Shown piece after piece: positions 3,092-46,622 of a stretch of DNA of 64,000 nt. Source of the DNA: an uncultured Gemmatimonadota bacterium (GTDB lineage: Bacteria > Gemmatimonadota > Gemmatimonadetes > Palauibacterales > Palauibacteraceae). The stretch is from contig CAYXHP010000072.1 in the NCBI GenBank assembly GCA_964465015.1, forward strand, positions 5,355 through 69,354, written 5' to 3'. The position numbers and the translations under genes are program-made. The notes beneath the pieces are model-generated. The model searched no databases. It was given only the letters and a program-made list of their open reading frames with translations, and was not told the DNA's origin. Numbering within the stretch: position 1 is the first letter of the stretch; every line of letters starts with the position of its first letter.

Positions 3092-3661
3092 ATGGAGGGA
3101 GGCGCGGTGACCCATACCGTGGGAATCGGGTTCTCGGGCGCTATCCTTTTATTTTCGGCCTCTCTCCTCGTGGCCCAGCAGCCATCCGACGCACCGCGAT
3201 CGGACACCGTGACGCGCGTGGCAGCCGATTCCGACGCGGTTCTGGGCGTAACCTCGCTTCCACGCGAGGAGATTCCCGGCTACGCCGCCACGGCACGCTT
3301 CTTGGGCTCGTTGCACCGGCGAGACAATTCGCGTGCCGAGCCCGCCACAACCCGGAACGAGCTCTCCCTCGACCTCGTCGTGGATGAGACGCTCACCCCC
3401 ATGGGACGAGACTTCTTCCAGGCGTTCTACACGGCCTGGAAGGCCCCCGAGGGAGCGCCTACCTACGCCATACGGATCGGCGAGCAGCCGACGCCCGGCC
3501 TGTCCACCCGGATCGTCCTCTACCTGAACAACGAGCGGCTCCTGCAGTTCCCCCTGGTGAAGACGAGCCACGATTTCATCGAGGAGGTGGCGGGTCAGGC
3601 CGTTCGGTACATGCAGCAGCAGCTCCGGCAGCGCCTGTCGCCCGACGTCGAAGGATCCTGA
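3092..3661 (+). CDS. csgE: curli assembly/secretion specificity factor CsgE homolog
   Basis: It aligns to E. coli CsgE. The segment LDLVVDETLTPMGRDFFQAFYTAWK matches [24 protein letters not shown], and the IRIGEQPTP...LLQFPL...DF block matches INERPSARW...FQTFLFPLKRDF. There is an N-terminal signal peptide. The start is ambiguous: ATG at 3092, GTG at 3068 or GTG at 3107. Confidence 0.8.
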   Translation: MEGGAVTHTVGIGFSGAILLFSASLLVAQQPSDAPRSDTVTRVAADSDAVLGVTSLPREEIPGYAATARFLGSLHRRDNSRAEPATTRNELSLDLVVDETLTPMGRDFFQAFYTAWKAPEGAPTYAIRIGEQPTPGLSTRIVLYLNNERLLQFPLVKTSHDFIEEVAGQAVRYMQQQLRQRLSPDVEGS

Positions 3662-4148: not shown

Positions 4149-4205
4149 GAGCCTCGTGAGCGGACACCGCGCGTCCAACACACGAAGCGATCAGGAGAGA
4201 CACGG

Positions 4206-5579
4206 ATGAGGCGAGCGATCGGCCTCGGCACGGCGCTCCTCCTCGGAGCGGCGGGGTGCACGAACTACATGGCTCCCCTGCACACCGCCCCGCCGCGCCC
4301 GAACGGGTCCACGCCGGTGACGCGGGAGCTCCGCGAGCTCCCGGCGCCCAAGGAGAAGGTGGTGGCGGCGGTGTACCGGTTCCGGGACGAGACGGGCCAG
4401 TACAAGCCCAGCGCGAACGCGACCAGCTTCTCGACGGCCGTCACGCAGGGGGCGACGTCGATCCTGATCGATGCGCTCCAGACCTCCGGCTGGTTCGTGC
4501 CGATCGAGCGGGAGGACCTCTCCAACCTCCTGAACGAACGCCAGATCATCCAGCAGATCCGGCAGCAGTACGAGGGCGCGGCCAAAGACCAGCACCAGCT
4601 CCCGCCCCTCCTGTTCGCCGGCGTGATGCTCGAGGGCGGCATCATCGGCTACAACACGAACACGGTGACCGGCGGCGAGGCCGCCCGCTACTTCGGGGCG
4701 GGAGGCTCGGCCGTCTTCCACCAGGACCAGGTCACCGTCTACCTCCGGGCCGTTTCCACGCAGACGGGGCGCGTGCTGGAGAACGTCCACGCGACCAAGA
4801 CCATCCTCTCCCAGGAGGTCGAGGCGGGGATCTTCCGCTTCGTCGAGGCCAACCGGCTGCTCCAGTCCGACATCGGCTACAGCTACAACGAGCCCACCAC
4901 CGTCGCGGTCCGCGAGGCGATCGAGGAATCCGTACGCGCGCTGGTCGTGGAAGGGATCAAGGATGGCCTGTGGAGTCTCGCCGACTCCGCCGACTCGCGG
5001 AGCCCCGCGATCCTGGCCTACGAGCGTGACAAGAACCGGGCGCAGCGGACCGACGTGTTCGATCTGTTCCGGGGAGCGAGCCGCACGGGCTTCTCGCTCG
5101 GCCTGTGGGCGGGCGGTCAGAAGCTGGAGGGGAATTACCAGAACTCGCTCATCCGTCCGAGCGGAGGCCTCACGATCCGGCACTCCGTCTCGCCGAACGT
5201 CACGTTCGGCCTCGATGCCTCGGCCTGGCAGATCGCGGCCCGCAACGGCTTCCAGAGCACCGGCGCCTCGTTCGGGGGGAGCGCCCTCTACTACTTCCTG
5301 CCCGACGGCACGGCCACGCCTTACGTGCAGGTCGGCGCCGGGGCGCTAAAGGGCGACCTCATCTCGAGCGCCGGATCCGAGGGCCCGCTTCGCTGGCGGC
5401 CCTACATCTCGGCCGCCCTCGGAGTCGAGTACATGGTGCGTCCGGGAGCGGCGTTCGACCTGAAGCTCGAGAACCAGTACGCGGCCGAGGAAGGCATCGA
5501 CAACGTGGACGAGGGGGGGCTCAACGACTCCCTCTGGCGCCTCTCGGCCGGCTTCATCTTCTACTTGTCGCACTTCTGA
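4206..5579 (+). CDS. csgG: curli secretion channel lipoprotein CsgG with an extra C-terminal ~190-aa beta-barrel-like domain
   Basis: It has the lipobox LLGAAGC. Residues ~40-260 align along their length with E. coli CsgG (VAAVYRFRDETGQYKP, NLLNERQIIQQ, GGIIGYNTNTVTGGEAARYFGAG, TKTILSQEVEAGIFRF, SYNEPTTVAVREAIE). Residues ~265-457 are an additional domain with alternating hydrophobic beta-strand patterns and a C-terminal ...GFIFYLSHF (terminal Phe), like an OMP barrel. Confidence 0.9.
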   Translation: MRRAIGLGTALLLGAAGCTNYMAPLHTAPPRPNGSTPVTRELRELPAPKEKVVAAVYRFRDETGQYKPSANATSFSTAVTQGATSILIDALQTSGWFVPIEREDLSNLLNERQIIQQIRQQYEGAAKDQHQLPPLLFAGVMLEGGIIGYNTNTVTGGEAARYFGAGGSAVFHQDQVTVYLRAVSTQTGRVLENVHATKTILSQEVEAGIFRFVEANRLLQSDIGYSYNEPTTVAVREAIEESVRALVVEGIKDGLWSLADSADSRSPAILAYERDKNRAQRTDVFDLFRGASRTGFSLGLWAGGQKLEGNYQNSLIRPSGGLTIRHSVSPNVTFGLDASAWQIAARNGFQSTGASFGGSALYYFLPDGTATPYVQVGAGALKGDLISSAGSEGPLRWRPYISAALGVEYMVRPGAAFDLKLENQYAAEEGIDNVDEGGLNDSLWRLSAGFIFYLSHF

Positions 5580-5787: not shown

Positions 5788-6741
5788 ATGCGTAAGCTCC
5801 AAGCACTCTTACTGGCCGGCGTCGTCGGACTGTTCCTGACGGCTGTCCCGGCGTATGGGCAGAGCAATACGGCCCACACGACCCAGACCGGGGACAACCT
5901 GAGCGCCGAGACGCACCAGCCCGGCGCCAGCAACCTGGCGAACATCGTGCAGGCCAACGACAACACGGGGCCGGAGGTGGCCTTCATTCGCCAGGCAGGG
6001 AACCACAACCAGGCCTTCATCCAGCAGAGCCAGACCGGTGGCGGCGGGATCACGCCTCCGCTGGAAGCGAGCATTCGGCAGTCCGGCGACTACAACGTCG
6101 CCCATCAGTCCGAGACCGCTCCCAGTTCGAATGCCGAGCAGATCCAGGAGGCGGTTCAGTCGGGCAACCACAACCGCTCCACGCAGACCATCGAGCACGG
6201 CTACACGATCCACCAGACCGTGCATCAGTCCGGTGACAACAACGTGGCGCGGCAGACCATCGGCGCAGACGGAAACGGACATATCAACGCCGACATCGTC
6301 CAGAGCGGAAACGGCAACACAGCCACGCAGGATCAGGCGGGCCTGAACGACAACGCGAGCATCACTCAGCCGGGCAACAACAACGTCGCGCACCAGCACC
6401 AGACCGGTCCGGCGTTCAGCCACGTGAATACGGCCGAGATCCGGCAGTCGGGGAATTCCAACACGGCGGTTCAGAACCAGACCATGGTCTCCGCCGCAGC
6501 CCCGCCGCACTACAACTACGCCACGGCTCACCAGTCGGGAAGCTCTAACCACGCCACTCAGAACCAGAGCGGGTTCGATCTGAACGCCACGATCCTCCAG
6601 TCCGGCAACGGCAACGTGGCGACGCAGAGCCAGATGTCCGGGTCTCTCCTAATGTCGACGATCACCCAGTCCAGCAACAACAACGTCGCGCACACAACGC
6701 AGACGGGCACCAGCGACGTCGCGACGGTCACGCAGGGCTGA
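5788..6741 (+). CDS. csgA: curlin-repeat major subunit (CsgA-like), paralog 1
   Basis: The signal peptide MRKLQALLLAGVVGLFLTAVPAYGQ is followed by many imperfect curlin repeats of the type Q-x-G-x-x-N-x-A-x3-Q (e.g. IRQSGDYNVAHQ, VHQSGDNNVARQ, IVQSGNGNTATQ, ITQPGNNNVAHQ, ILQSGNGNVATQ, ITQSSNNNVAHTTQ). An RBS GGAGAG lies upstream. Confidence 0.85.
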   Translation: MRKLQALLLAGVVGLFLTAVPAYGQSNTAHTTQTGDNLSAETHQPGASNLANIVQANDNTGPEVAFIRQAGNHNQAFIQQSQTGGGGITPPLEASIRQSGDYNVAHQSETAPSSNAEQIQEAVQSGNHNRSTQTIEHGYTIHQTVHQSGDNNVARQTIGADGNGHINADIVQSGNGNTATQDQAGLNDNASITQPGNNNVAHQHQTGPAFSHVNTAEIRQSGNSNTAVQNQTMVSAAAPPHYNYATAHQSGSSNHATQNQSGFDLNATILQSGNGNVATQSQMSGSLLMSTITQSSNNNVAHTTQTGTSDVATVTQG

Positions 6742-6769: not shown

Positions 6770-7570
6770 ATGCGTAAGCTCCAGGCACTCTTGCTGGCCG
6801 GCGTCGTCGGACTCTTCCTGACGGCCGTGCCGACCTTCGCGCAGAGCAATACGGCGACTGTCAACCAAACCGGTGACAATCTCACCGCCGAGGCCCACCA
6901 GCCGGGCGCCAGCAACCTGGCCAATATCATGCAGGCCAACGATAACACGGGCCCGGTAACAGCCTTCATCAGGCAGGCCGGAAGTCACAACAAAGCCTTC
7001 ATCGATCAGAGCCAGACGGGTGGCGGAGGCATCACCCCTCCGCTCGAGGCCTCGATCAGGCAGCCCGGAAACTACAACGTCGCCCATCAGTTTGAGAACG
7101 CCCCAGGCTACAATCAGGGGCAGACCCAGGAGGCCGTGCAGTCGGGCGACCACAATACCTCTAACCAGACGATCGATCATGGCTGGGGGATTCACCAGTC
7201 CGTGAACCAGTCGGGAAACGACAACGTGGCTCGTCAAACCGTAGATGGTAGTGGGGTCGGGAATCTGGTCTCGAGTATCATCCAGTCCGGAAATGGGAAC
7301 ACCGCCACGCAGGACCAGACTGGCCTGAATCAGACCGAGAACGCGAAGCAGTCGGGCAACAACAACGTCGCGCATCAGTATCAGACAGGGCCAGGCGCAT
7401 ACAGCCACCTTAACCTGGAGACCATTCTCCAGTCGGGGAATGCCAACCTCGCGGCTCAGCACCAGATGGGTCTGGACCTGACCTCGACGGTCACCCAGTC
7501 CAGCAACGGCAACGTCGCGCACACGACACAGACGGGAACCAACGACGTCGCGACGGTCACGCAGGGGTGA
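6770..7570 (+). CDS. csgA: curlin-repeat major subunit (CsgA-like), paralog 2 (tandem duplicate)
   Basis: The signal peptide and the C-terminal ...TNDVATVTQG are nearly identical to paralog 1, also at the DNA level. It has the same curlin repeat structure. An RBS GGAGG lies 8 nt upstream of the ATG. Confidence 0.85.
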   Translation: MRKLQALLLAGVVGLFLTAVPTFAQSNTATVNQTGDNLTAEAHQPGASNLANIMQANDNTGPVTAFIRQAGSHNKAFIDQSQTGGGGITPPLEASIRQPGNYNVAHQFENAPGYNQGQTQEAVQSGDHNTSNQTIDHGWGIHQSVNQSGNDNVARQTVDGSGVGNLVSSIIQSGNGNTATQDQTGLNQTENAKQSGNNNVAHQYQTGPGAYSHLNLETILQSGNANLAAQHQMGLDLTSTVTQSSNGNVAHTTQTGTNDVATVTQG

Positions 7571-7715: not shown

Positions 7716-8372
7716 ATGAGACGGTTCCTACAGGTGACCCGCCCGACGAGGCTGGCTTGCGCGGCCATGGTGGCCGTCGCGGTTGGCCCGGGGCTCTCCG
7801 GCGCGGCGGCGCAGCAGACCGGCGGCGCGTACATCACGCAGGCGACCTCGCCGGAGACCGTGCTGCCCAGGTCGACGAGCCCCGACCAGCAGGCGACCGC
7901 CCTGTGGCCCCAGCTCGCCTGCTTGGGACTCGGAGCCGCCGGAGCCTCTTGCGATCTCCGCAGCTCGGCGGGTCCGCCGGCGGGCGGCTTCCGGAACTTC
8001 GTCGCCCTCGTGCAGGCCGGCAGCGGCAACTTCATCGCCACGGTCCAGGCGGGCGGCACGGGCAACCAGATCCAGGCGAGCCAGACCGGGGACAACAACA
8101 CGCTGTACGCGGATCAGCTGGGAAGCGACAACCTCCTGGGCGTGCGCCTGGTCGGCAACGACAACACGCTGCACTCGTCGCAACACGGCAGCGGCAACCA
8201 GTACCTGTTCAGCTTCGAAGGCAACTCCCTGAACCACAACCTCCTGCAGGAGGGAGACAACCTGCGGGCGGTGCAGATCGGCGTGGGGACGCTGCCGTTC
8301 AGCATCGAGCAGCTCGGTCACGACATGGAGATCCGGATCGTGCACGACCCCCTGAGCGGATGGCCGCGATGA
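7716..8372 (+). CDS. curlin-repeat protein with a distinct Cys-containing N-terminal domain (CsgB-like nucleator candidate)
   Basis: An RBS GAGGAG precedes the ATG. After the signal peptide there is a ~90-aa N-domain with cysteines (LACLGLGAAGASCDL). This is followed by curlin-type repeats: ALVQAGSGNFIATVQAGGTGNQIQASQTGDNNTLYADQLGSDNLLGVRLVGNDNTLHSSQHGSGNQYLFSFEGNS. Confidence 0.75.
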   Translation: MRRFLQVTRPTRLACAAMVAVAVGPGLSGAAAQQTGGAYITQATSPETVLPRSTSPDQQATALWPQLACLGLGAAGASCDLRSSAGPPAGGFRNFVALVQAGSGNFIATVQAGGTGNQIQASQTGDNNTLYADQLGSDNLLGVRLVGNDNTLHSSQHGSGNQYLFSFEGNSLNHNLLQEGDNLRAVQIGVGTLPFSIEQLGHDMEIRIVHDPLSGWPR

Positions 8373-9040
8373 GAGCTGACACAGTCAGACACGGACGCAG
8401 GAACAAGGCGGGCCTCCGGGGCCCCGCCGGCCTCCTGCCGCTGGCCCTCGCCCTCGCGACGCTGGCCGGCTGCAAGACCCCGACGACCGGACCCACGGCG
8501 ACGGGTGCCATCCAGGGTCGGGTCCTCAACGACAGCACCGGGTCGCCCGTGGCCGGAGCCTCGATCACCACGAATCCGCCCACCAGCGCGCCGGTCTCCG
8601 GCGCGGACGGGACGTTTGAGCTTCCGGACCTGGACACCGGGGAGTATTCCATCTCGGCCAGGAAGTCCGGTTTCTCGTCCGCCACCGTCTCGGTCTCGGT
8701 CGAGAAGGGAAAGACCACCGACGCCACCATCCTCCTCCCGCCCACCAGCTCGAAGTCGGACGTGCTTAACGTCGAGATCGATGATGTGCGCACCAGCACG
8801 CCAGCGCCCGATTCAGTGTTCACGGAGGTCGAGTACGTCGCCAAGAACGTGTCGCAGGACACGCTGGCCGAGTACAACATCGTCTTCAACATCTTCCTGC
8901 CGGGAAAAGTGCTGAAGCAGGAAGAGACGGGAGAGGATCTCCATCCAGACCAGCAGCACGTGGGTGATTTCCGGAAGTATGTCGGAGACACGACACCGGA
9001 CTCGGTCCGCGTCGGCGACATCTACACCCGGCCGACCTGA
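8360..9040 (+). CDS. lipoprotein with a carboxypeptidase-regulatory-like (CarbopepD_reg / transthyretin-like beta-sandwich) domain, coupled to the curli locus
   Basis: In-frame ATGs at 8360 and 8369 overlap the stop (8370-8372) of the preceding curlin gene. It has a lipobox LATLAGC. The segment GAIQGRVLNDSTGSPVAGASITT...GADGTFELPDLDTGEYSISARKSGF...VSVEKGKTTDATILL matches the CarbopepD_reg pattern. Confidence 0.65.
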   Translation: MAAMRADTVRHGRRNKAGLRGPAGLLPLALALATLAGCKTPTTGPTATGAIQGRVLNDSTGSPVAGASITTNPPTSAPVSGADGTFELPDLDTGEYSISARKSGFSSATVSVSVEKGKTTDATILLPPTSSKSDVLNVEIDDVRTSTPAPDSVFTEVEYVAKNVSQDTLAEYNIVFNIFLPGKVLKQEETGEDLHPDQQHVGDFRKYVGDTTPDSVRVGDIYTRPT

Positions 9041-45392: not shown

Positions 45393-46622
45393 CTAGCGCA
45401 GGATCCCCGCCACCCCCGTCTCCGTGGGCATGCGCTCCGCGGGGAGCACGAGCGCGTTTCCGCCGTGCAGGATCACCACCTCGGCGAGCTCGTCCAGGAG
45501 CTCGGCCGCCTCCCCGGATGGATCGTCGCCGCCCTCCTTCTCGATCTCGATCGCGCCGGTCTCACGGTCCAGGCGGCCCCACACCCGTCGGTCACGCTCG
45601 GTGAGGAGCAGTCGGATACGGCCGGCCACGGCCAGGTGAGCCAGGTTGGCCAGGTCCAGCTCCCCCTTGCCGCGCCCGTAGGATCCCTCCCACAGGTCCA
45701 GGGCCCGGTCGATCTCGCGGTCCACCTGCGCCCGCGCGATCGGCCACGCCGCCTGGTGGACGCGCTCGGCGCTCCAATCGGCGACGGAGGCCTCGATCCC
45801 CTGCTCGGCCAGGTTGCGCAGCCGGCTCACGTCGCGGTACAGGGAGTGGTATTCCTTGACCGCGGCCAGGACCAGCGGTCCGATCTCTCCCTCGAGCATG
45901 TCCTGCAGTCCCTCGTCGACCGCCTTGAAGAACCGGCGGAGCTCGGGCTCGTCGTCGTCGGCGCCGACCCCGTGGCCGTGGAAGACCGGCATCACGCCAC
46001 CCCGACCGTGCGTGCCGTGCGTATCCCGGGTGTACTTGCGGCGGAGCACGATCTTCTGATCGCGTTCGAACTCGTAGCCCAGAGCTTCCATGAGGTTGCG
46101 CGGCACGCCCTGGAGGTCGATGGGGCTCGCTCCGGCCGCCGTCCCGGACCACAGGACGACCTTCTTCTGGCTCAGCCCGAGCACCCAGTACCGGTCGGGC
46201 GCCTGGAGGTACTCGAGCATCGGGCGGGTATGGAAGGTCGGCGCCACGACCACCAGGTCGGGGAGATCGGCCGGGAGCCGGTAGAGCCGCTGGACGGCGG
46301 GTGAGGCGAATACGGCCAGCCCTCCCGACTGGTACCGCCAGAACTCCTCCTCGCGCGTCAGCGGCTCGAGCTCCGCGGTGAGGGACTCCCCGGCGCCGTT
46401 GGAGCCCTCGGCCGTGCCGAGCAGATCCCGGGCCCGGTCCAGCGCCGCCCGGTACCGGAGGCGATTGGTCTCCGCCTCGCTGCTCGAGCGCTCGGTAGGA
46501 ACGTACATGGAGATGGCGGGACCTTCCCGCTCCTCCAGCAGGGTGCGCAGGTCATCTCGTCCAAAGTAGTCCACGAAAGCCCCCTCTCGTGAGGTCGGCT
46601 CGGTATCAGGCAGCGCGTTCAT
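45393..46622 (-). CDS. hypothetical protein (possibly bacterial eRF1/Pelota-like 'baeRF' fold; unconfirmed)
   Basis: 409 aa of soluble composition. There is no clear motif. The C-terminal ELLDELAEVVILHGGNALVLP resembles the C-domain of eRF1/Pelota-like proteins. Confidence 0.55.
   Translation of the reverse strand: MNALPDTEPTSREGAFVDYFGRDDLRTLLEEREGPAISMYVPTERSSSEAETNRLRYRAALDRARDLLGTAEGSNGAGESLTAELEPLTREEEFWRYQSGGLAVFASPAVQRLYRLPADLPDLVVVAPTFHTRPMLEYLQAPDRYWVLGLSQKKVVLWSGTAAGASPIDLQGVPRNLMEALGYEFERDQKIVLRRKYTRDTHGTHGRGGVMPVFHGHGVGADDDEPELRRFFKAVDEGLQDMLEGEIGPLVLAAVKEYHSLYRDVSRLRNLAEQGIEASVADWSAERVHQAAWPIARAQVDREIDRALDLWEGSYGRGKGELDLANLAHLAVAGRIRLLLTERDRRVWGRLDRETGAIEIEKEGGDDPSGEAAELLDELAEVVILHGGNALVLPAERMPTETGVAGILR

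Follow-up and report, generated by a model that had tools for sequence, protein, structure and literature searches.

A predicted eight-stranded outer-membrane β-barrel fused to the curli channel lipoprotein CsgG

The 64,000-nucleotide stretch of DNA from an uncultured Gemmatimonadota bacterium analysed here (the window; positions count from its first letter) holds a curli locus in which the gene for the secretion channel CsgG encodes a whole further domain behind the part shared with Escherichia coli CsgG. From a structural model and from conservation across homologues, this extension is predicted to be a compact OmpA/NspA-like eight-stranded transmembrane β-barrel. Among Bacteroidota, Balneolales and Rhodothermales-type bacteria of the Fibrobacterota–Chlorobiota–Bacteroidota (FCB) group, curli loci normally carry csgG in this fused form. 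We consider it probable that the fusion joins the channel lipoprotein to a modular barrel, nine copies of which would stand as satellites at the periphery of the pore and serve as a non-conducting anchor or assembly module inserted by the β-barrel assembly machinery (BAM). The fusion open reading frame (ORF) divides as follows.

4206 to 5579, forward strand: csgG–barrel fusion ORF, complete, 457 amino acids plus stop codon (ORF list; 100% identical public protein P0001; G+C content at third codon positions, GC3)
4206 to 4259, forward strand: predicted lipoprotein signal peptide with lipobox LGAAG-C18 (sequence; G17 and C18 conserved)
4260 to 5024, forward strand: CsgG domain, residues 19–273 (Pfam PF03783; phmmer against PDB CsgG; Foldseek)
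5025 to 5087, forward strand: linker, residues 274–294 (DSSP on the AlphaFold2 model; conservation)
5088 to 5564, forward strand: predicted eight-stranded outer-membrane β-barrel domain, residues 295–453 (AlphaFold2; Foldseek; amphipathic strands; weak Pfam OMP_b-brl match)
5565 to 5579, forward strand: C-terminal tail L-S-H-F and stop codon (sequence)

Pfam assigns residues 45–258 to the CsgG family (PF03783; E 1.4e-63, 214.4 bits against a cut-off of 20.8), and a phmmer search of the PDB aligns residues 16–273 with residues 14–269 of E. coli CsgG (3x2r, 277 amino acids; E 2e-64). The first 273 residues thus cover essentially the whole E. coli protein, and the extra part comprises residues 274–457, about 184 amino acids at window positions 5025–5576. 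The initial annotation had fitted the CsgG fold, lipidation signal included, into the first ~260 residues and had begun an extra domain of ~190 residues at position 4990; the complete fold, the lipobox cysteine and the extension are all present, with the boundary moved, as CsgG reaches residue 273 and position 4990 (residue 262) still falls within the last CsgG helix, by about 12 residues. Searches of the PDB with phmmer and Foldseek returned no counterpart of residues 274–457 in any solved CsgG chain and no chain spanning both the CsgG and the barrel domains. Against the enterobacterial CsgG equivalog model of NCBIfam (NF011731) the protein scores 229.8 bits, below the cut-off of 505, which makes it a CsgG homologue and not an equivalog by the NCBI criterion.

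Searching with the full-length protein gave 3360 matches at E ≤ 1e-10, and the homologue counts and the 120-sequence alignment used below derive from the best 120 of these. Within that set G17 and C18 are at least 90% conserved and a lipobox-like motif occurs in 105 of the 120, so the fusion is, on sequence grounds, a predicted lipoprotein with lipobox Cys18. The CsgG domain shows the layout of a periplasmic α/β core, a constriction loop, two transmembrane hairpins (strands 140–184 and 190–228) and a C-terminal helix. In Foldseek comparisons, the AlphaFold2 model matches the membrane form of CsgG (6l7a and 4uv3; target-normalized template modelling (TM) scores of 0.75–0.76) better than the pre-pore form (4uv2; 0.66–0.67). 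The hairpins are the most conserved region of the CsgG part, with entropies of 0.6–0.9 bits, and the constriction-loop aromatic at position 75 (Phe71 in E. coli) is Phe, Trp or Tyr in 120 of 120 homologues; the equivalents of Tyr66 and Asn70 in the constriction are Ser/Thr-type residues. The CsgG half is accordingly predicted, by sequence and model, to retain the features of a working channel.

Beyond the CsgG fold, the AlphaFold2 model of the full-length protein, built on the 120-sequence alignment (mean predicted local distance difference test score (pLDDT) of 84; predicted TM score (pTM) of 0.74), runs from the last CsgG helix (residues 267–281 by DSSP) through a 13-residue segment into eight strands, 295–308, 314–327, 332–345, 350–363, 370–382, 398–412, 415–426 and 442–453, with a pLDDT in this block mostly of 93–98. 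When modelled in isolation, the C-terminal domain folds alike (eight strands, pLDDT 89.6, pTM 0.84). The junction itself carries conserved D283, F285 and R293, and the spacing from W256 to R293 is 38–40 residues in 114 of the 120 homologues, so that the linker length is nearly constant. The top Foldseek matches in the PDB are all eight-stranded outer-membrane barrels, namely NspA (E 1.7e-7; TM 0.72/0.81), OmpA, Ail, OmpW, OprG, the N-terminal domain of OprF and OmpX, at 14–19% identity to the C-terminal domain; among the 37 matches with E ≤ 0.001 there is no soluble barrel. A profile search of PDB sequences weakly recovers the OprF and OmpA barrels, and in Pfam 12 of 34 family members match OMP_b-brl (PF13505) at E < 0.01, the best at 4.3e-9; several homologues carry precomputed PF13505 matches in databases.

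The conservation pattern is that of a membrane-embedded wall. In all eight strands, positions with a mean Kyte–Doolittle value of +3 to +4 across the 120 homologues alternate with small or polar ones, and aromatic residues at the strand ends (positions 307, 332, 362/363, 373, 398/400, 425, 444 and 452/453) are 70–100% conserved; the strand periodicity and the Gly/aromatic girdle first seen in the single sequence are thus conserved throughout the set. Lipid-facing positions in every strand are hydrophobic yet variable (entropy of ~2–2.4 bits), as expected of a lipid-exposed wall, and the lumen is lined by Gly, Ser and Thr together with conserved R317, R325 and E408. Turns on the side of the chain termini measure 2–6 residues. 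The longer loops lie on the opposite, presumably extracellular, side: L3 (383–397) is variable, at 8–17 residues, and L4 (427–441) has 15–16; all other loops have 4–6. The modelled topology is the standard outer-membrane one, with both ends periplasmic. The last strand bears a conserved motif of G449, a hydrophobic residue, any residue, an aromatic and Y453, with Y453 present in 114 of the 120 homologues, G449 in 112 and an aromatic at position 452 in ~80%. We also observed that lipid-facing positions 302, 304, 320, 356, 360, 378, 403 and 405 (approximately 5109–5420), in the presumed outer-leaflet half of the wall, are mostly Ala or Gly, unlike the inner-leaflet half, which is built of Leu, Val and Ile; packing against lipopolysaccharide (LPS) or contact with a neighbouring barrel are possibilities.

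These data bear on a different reading, in which the C-terminal region would be soluble and periplasmic, for instance a lipocalin-like barrel, or else a disordered tail acting on the channel from the periplasm as a regulator. Soluble eight-stranded barrels do exist, but we find this reading barely credible given strand pLDDT values above 90, the absence of soluble barrels from the Foldseek matches, the aliphatic outward faces with their two aromatic girdles and the OMP_b-brl matches of relatives; moreover, the closest non-fused relatives are built as is usual for integral outer-membrane proteins, with signal peptides and OmpA-type architectures. The suggestion in the initial annotation of an integral OmpA/OmpW-like eight-stranded barrel is thereby supported from three sides (AlphaFold2, Foldseek and Pfam), and the disordered or soluble region that would have spoken against it did not emerge.

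The fusion is one real gene. GC3 is 0.95 in the CsgG part and 0.92 in the extension, in one frame, which argues against a frameshift, and the identical ORF is present on a Logan contig (L015) assembled from run SRR8556254; the source list of the protein adds NCBI and JGI. The best 120 of the 3360 full-length matches are 433–486 amino acids long, cover 94–100% of the query and share the architecture, so the extension occurs in other CsgG homologues, as had been asked at the outset. Ten named genomes encode a long csgG: a Balneolales metagenome-assembled genome (MAG), Solirubrum puertoriconensis, two Chryseosolibacter MAGs, Arundinibacter roseus, two Altibacter genomes, two Flavobacteriaceae MAGs and a Bacteroidales MAG. 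Named proteins of the long form also come from Rubricoccaceae and Bacteroidota. With this many full-length homologues and named genomes, long csgG is the rule in the lineage and not an accident of one assembly. The chance that a sequencing or assembly error joined csgG to a separate downstream outer-membrane protein gene, a worry raised with the first description of the ORF, is therefore virtually negligible: the single-ORF architecture recurs in over 120 different homologues whose source genomes and metagenomes are independent, including the ten named genomes, the linker is free of indels in most homologues, and the one-frame GC3 and the Logan contig point the same way. We found nothing in favour of such an error, although high-GC DNA does yield long spurious ORFs. 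One of these is a 330-amino-acid antisense ORF (4191–5183, reverse strand) that overlaps csgG; it is typical at ~68% GC and shows no evidence of being a gene.

To place the barrel in a wider family, we turned from the fusion to the C-terminal domain by itself. A word-index search with the C-terminal 193 residues alone gave 0 matches even though the database holds the identical full-length protein, which reflects a limitation of the tool. With the alignment of the C-terminal domain as profile, 1.84 billion cluster representatives were searched exhaustively; this returned 1216 matches at E ≤ 1e-3, 244 of them at E ≤ 1e-10, and the best 150 of the 1216 were classified. These 150 comprise 30 full-length CsgG–barrel fusions (representatives of 50%-identity clusters), 1 CsgG with two tandem barrels (P0122, 662 amino acids), 25 fragments retaining part of CsgG, 18 longer proteins with the barrel at the N terminus, 12 proteins flagged as possibly free-standing with a signal peptide, and 64 barrel-only fragments and others. 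Seven of the 18 N-terminal-barrel proteins were scanned, giving two with OmpA domains (one of them with TSP3 repeats), four with TPR domains and one with the barrel alone. About nine of the 12 flagged as free-standing are genuine signal-peptide proteins of 208–265 amino acids, and the remainder are fragments. P0122 has two tandem eight-stranded barrels after its CsgG domain and occurs in a csgE–csgF–csgG locus on contigs of two different metagenome assemblies (L016, 2630–4618; L017, 2581–4569). In P0181 (467 amino acids) and P0185 (474 amino acids), the barrel follows an unrelated N-terminal region of ~290 residues, for a total length near that of the CsgG fusions; this region has no Pfam match and no similarity to CsgG, and hhalign aligns the barrel alone.

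The barrel is therefore found free-standing, N-terminal, behind another domain and duplicated, which identifies it as a modular membrane domain of a wider FCB-type family that was recruited to CsgG. The free-standing form is exemplified by P0221/P0270 (218 amino acids; L011, 6001–6657), which has a signal peptide and lacks a CsgG domain and is nevertheless named ‘Curli production assembly/transport component CsgG’ in NCBI records; the name probably spread from the C-terminal domain of fusion proteins. A split-gene link, in which a free-standing barrel would lie beside a short csgG, was considered and rejected, as P0221 adjoins glutamine synthetase genes with no curli genes nearby.

We propose that a nonameric 36-stranded channel is still built from the CsgG part, a view based on the conserved hairpins, constriction aromatic and lipobox and on the adjacent csgE, csgF and curlin genes, and that every protomer would in addition set a closed barrel of its own into the outer membrane at the channel periphery. 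Nine satellite barrels at a radius of ~50 Å would bring the total to 108 transmembrane strands. Estimates from barrel geometry put the outer radius of the 36-stranded wall at ~37–39 Å and that of an eight-stranded barrel at ~13 Å, and the 13-residue segment between the helix end and strand 1 can reach at most ~44 Å. Nine satellites at ~50 Å would have a centre spacing of 34–36 Å against a barrel diameter of 26 Å, and a ring of nine is accordingly sterically allowed.

Within such a ring, the packed lumen (Gly, Ser and Thr with R317, R325 and E408) and the short loops suggest that the barrel is most likely a non-conducting anchor or assembly module and not a second channel or a receptor. The presence of OmpW, OprG and AlkL among the structural matches could be taken to indicate an independent small channel of that type for a hydrophobic or ionic solute, merely co-expressed through the fusion. 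We regard this as quite improbable, because barrels that are not channels (NspA, OmpA, Ail and OmpX) match best, the interior resembles the salt-bridged interior of OmpA-type anchors, and loops this short could not form the lateral-opening extensions seen in the OmpW family.

An anchor or assembly module of this kind would have consequences for biogenesis. The domain has the make-up of a classical monomeric barrel, its last strand aromatic and conserved, and is most likely inserted by BAM; to judge from sequence and model, the fusion probably adds to CsgG assembly a BAM-dependent step that may simply anchor the channel or may seed its oligomerization. In E. coli, according to Dunstan et al. 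2015 as cited in PMC4973683, CsgG depends on Lol for targeting and reaches the outer membrane even on depletion of BamA and TamA. A bolder and more doubtful version of the proposal, which we put forward tentatively, has the FCB curli channel as a 108-strand super-complex of hybrid biogenesis: BAM would insert the barrel of every protomer before the pore forms, and the barrels would concentrate and orient the CsgG domains, which would then oligomerize and punch the central pore.

Several observations weigh against the anchor and assembly reading or against parts of it. The window protein scores 18.3–18.7 bits against OMP_b-brl, under the gathering cut-off of 28.7, with this sub-threshold match covering profile positions 17–175 of 175. 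The ending GFIFYLSHF, originally singled out as a terminal-Phe signature for BAM, is present, but Phe is the last residue in just 57 of the 120 homologues; the conserved element is the G449…Y453 motif, and recognition through a classical β-signal is not assured. An entropy-based search of the 120 homologues for a conserved outward face on any strand, as a candidate channel contact, found none, and the sequences thus provide no evidence of a specific barrel–channel contact. The nine-barrel ring and its radius are deduced from geometry. Short CsgG works without a barrel in Proteobacteria, which leaves the need for one in FCB bacteria unexplained. An explanation through the absence of LolB was considered and dropped, since short CsgG is also present in Alphaproteobacteria, a class without canonical LolB.

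Loop L4 raises a further difficulty, as its fixed length of 15–16 residues comes with two invariant Asp residues, D432 and D441, and with G437 and W444, which hardly vary, a pattern that hints at something beyond passive anchoring, such as ion or LPS binding. Together with the near-constant linker length, which suggests a defined geometry, these residues speak for a functional surface module, in which L3 and L4 would bind LPS or Ca2+, the CsgF head, the nucleator curlin or the fibre and so provide nine docking sites round the exit. We judge this unlikely. The L4 motif, D-x-[LI]-D-...-G-...-[ND]-D-x-[WY], also occurs in free-standing and N-terminal barrels outside curli loci, which makes it a family trait and not a curli-specific one; all loops besides L3 and L4 have just 4–6 residues; and the tandem barrels of P0122 better suit a generic membrane module. 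Since non-curli relatives share it, the Asp pair is probably structural, or serves ion or LPS binding for the whole barrel family. The anchor or assembly module is thus the role that we favour for the barrel.

The fusion gene lies in a curli locus whose other genes, all in the same direction, are listed here.

3092 to 3661, forward strand: csgE-like gene, 189 amino acids, with signal peptide, ~95 extra N-terminal residues and CsgE domain (Pfam CsgE E 5.6e-15, in the C-terminal part; Logan contig L015, 2700–3269)
3705 to 4148, forward strand: csgF, 147 amino acids (Pfam CsgF E 4.4e-25, profile positions 3–132 of 132)
5788 to 6741, forward strand: curlin-repeat protein 1, 317 amino acids, CsgA/B-like substrate (Pfam Curlin_rpt E 6e-18; L015 gene call)
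6770 to 7570, forward strand: curlin-repeat protein 2, 266 amino acids (Pfam Curlin_rpt E 6.7e-12)
7716 to 8372, forward strand: possible third curlin-like protein, 218 amino acids (Curlin_rpt E 5.7e-4, 20.2 bits against a cut-off of 20.7)
8360 to 9040, forward strand: lipoprotein with CarboxypepD_reg domain, 226 amino acids (PF13620 E 2.9e-15; lipobox LAGC)

The window thus has a csgE-like gene, csgF, long csgG, two clear curlin genes and one marginal one, and a CarboxypepD_reg gene. Solirubrum and Altibacter likewise have csgE–csgF–long csgG with curlin genes, Altibacter also a CarboxypepD_reg protein, and the metagenome loci L016 and L017 have csgE, csgF and the two-barrel csgG together with two unannotated genes and a CarboxypepD_reg/β-propeller protein. 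A CarboxypepD_reg protein recurs at the end of long-csgG loci (window 8360–9040; L008, 7400–8902; L016, 7758–9275), with a length of ~500 amino acids outside the window and additional β-propeller matches in the L016 copy; it may be an unrecognized accessory component of these curli systems. CsgE-like proteins of 189–260 amino acids (window 3092–3661; L002, 4779–5444; L008, 4808–5590) confine the CsgE domain to their C-terminal ~90–100 residues and have an N-terminal region of ~95–160 residues that Pfam CsgE does not explain. The two clear curlin genes (5788–6741 and 6770–7570) encode nearly identical signal peptides and N termini (MRKLQALLLAGVVGLFLTAVP...), which suggests recent tandem duplication of the substrate gene. 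A scan of the locus for promoter-like sites found none, terminator-like sites there number seven weak ones against 3.4 ± 2.0 expected by chance, and an Rfam scan of the whole window gave no matches. Elsewhere in the window and unrelated to curli, the reverse-strand ORF at 45396–46622 matches the bacterial archaeo-eukaryotic release factors (baeRF), an uncommon class (family 3, E 6e-37).

Both halves of the fusion are of known kinds, the CsgG family and the OmpA-like small barrels, and databases already hold the fusion proteins, some with both Pfam domains precomputed. Curli systems in Bacteroidetes were reported by Dueholm et al. 2012, and NanoporeDB 2026 trims CsgG-like models to the pore core. 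We found no description of the CsgG extension in Dueholm et al. 2012, Sleutel et al. 2023, OMPdb 2021, NanoporeDB 2026 or the open-access full texts searched, a scope that leaves room for an earlier mention elsewhere. The initial annotation had called the arrangement architecturally novel; in the literature searched it is indeed undescribed, and it is at the same time common in the FCB group and already in databases under the generic name CsgG.

CsgG is the paradigm type VIII secretion channel, a commercial nanopore-sequencing pore and the textbook BAM-independent outer-membrane pore. A barrel carried lineage-wide on every protomer therefore poses a testable question about how oligomeric lipoprotein pores are targeted, anchored and assembled in outer membranes other than that of E. 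coli. If the proposal is true, a channel that is BAM-independent in E. coli would have been made BAM-dependent through domain fusion, in a new multi-barrel membrane architecture of 36 + 9 × 8 strands. The fusion also offers natural scaffolds for CsgG pore engineering, and it corrects annotation practice, in that free-standing barrels have received the name ‘CsgG’ through fusion proteins. The advance is incremental and not fundamental, its parts being known and the role of the fusion inferred.

Set against known systems, the window protein is closest in its N-terminal part to E. coli CsgG (PDB 4UV3, 3X2R, 4Q79, 6L7A and 6SI7), with which it shares the lipoprotein N-terminal Cys, the two hairpins, the constriction aromatic, the csgE, csgF and curlin neighbours and, over residues 16–273, the same fold at 41–47% identity in Foldseek alignments. 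E. coli CsgG differs in having Tyr66 and Asn70 where this family has Ser/Thr-type residues, and it stops ~8 residues past the point at which the window protein runs into the linker and the 159-residue barrel. HfaB, a CsgG-like holdfast anchor, is weakly homologous to the N-terminal domain (NF037935; E 6.8e-13, 48.4 bits, far under the cut-off of 300); the match to this profile of 264 positions goes no further than query residue 248 and so stops short of the barrel, and the locus here is one of curli and not of holdfast. FapF of Pseudomonas (PDB 5O65) is likewise an outer-membrane β-barrel dedicated to amyloid subunit export, but it is a distant and poor structural match (Foldseek E 1.9e-3; TM 0.39/0.28), and FapF is itself the channel, whereas in the window protein CsgG would be the channel and the barrel an accessory.

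With OmpA-type barrels (NspA 1P4T, OmpA 1BXW/1QJP, Ail 3QRA, OmpX 1QJ9 and OprF-N 4RLC), the predicted C-terminal domain has in common eight amphipathic antiparallel strands with short turns on the periplasmic side, girdles of aromatic residues, an interior packed with polar residues and a last strand of aromatic character, at a sequence similarity that is weak but consistent. In OmpA and OprF, the barrel is N-terminal and is followed by a peptidoglycan-binding domain, whereas here it is C-terminal in an oligomeric lipoprotein channel. The nearest parallel for the proposed role comes from the same bacterial group: a preprint (bioRxiv 10.1101/2025.03.18.644022) describes the small outer-membrane barrel PorG of the Bacteroidota type IX secretion system as linked by a disulfide to subunits of a ring beneath the outer membrane that is formed by the lipoprotein PorK, another case of a large ring anchored by small barrels. 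PorG is a polypeptide of its own, its ring has 32–33 subunits, and the C-terminal domain matches the PorG family (NF052316) partially, at E 9e-4 and 19 bits, far under the cut-off of 130. The domain is therefore not PorG, and the resemblance is an analogy in working, not one of family.

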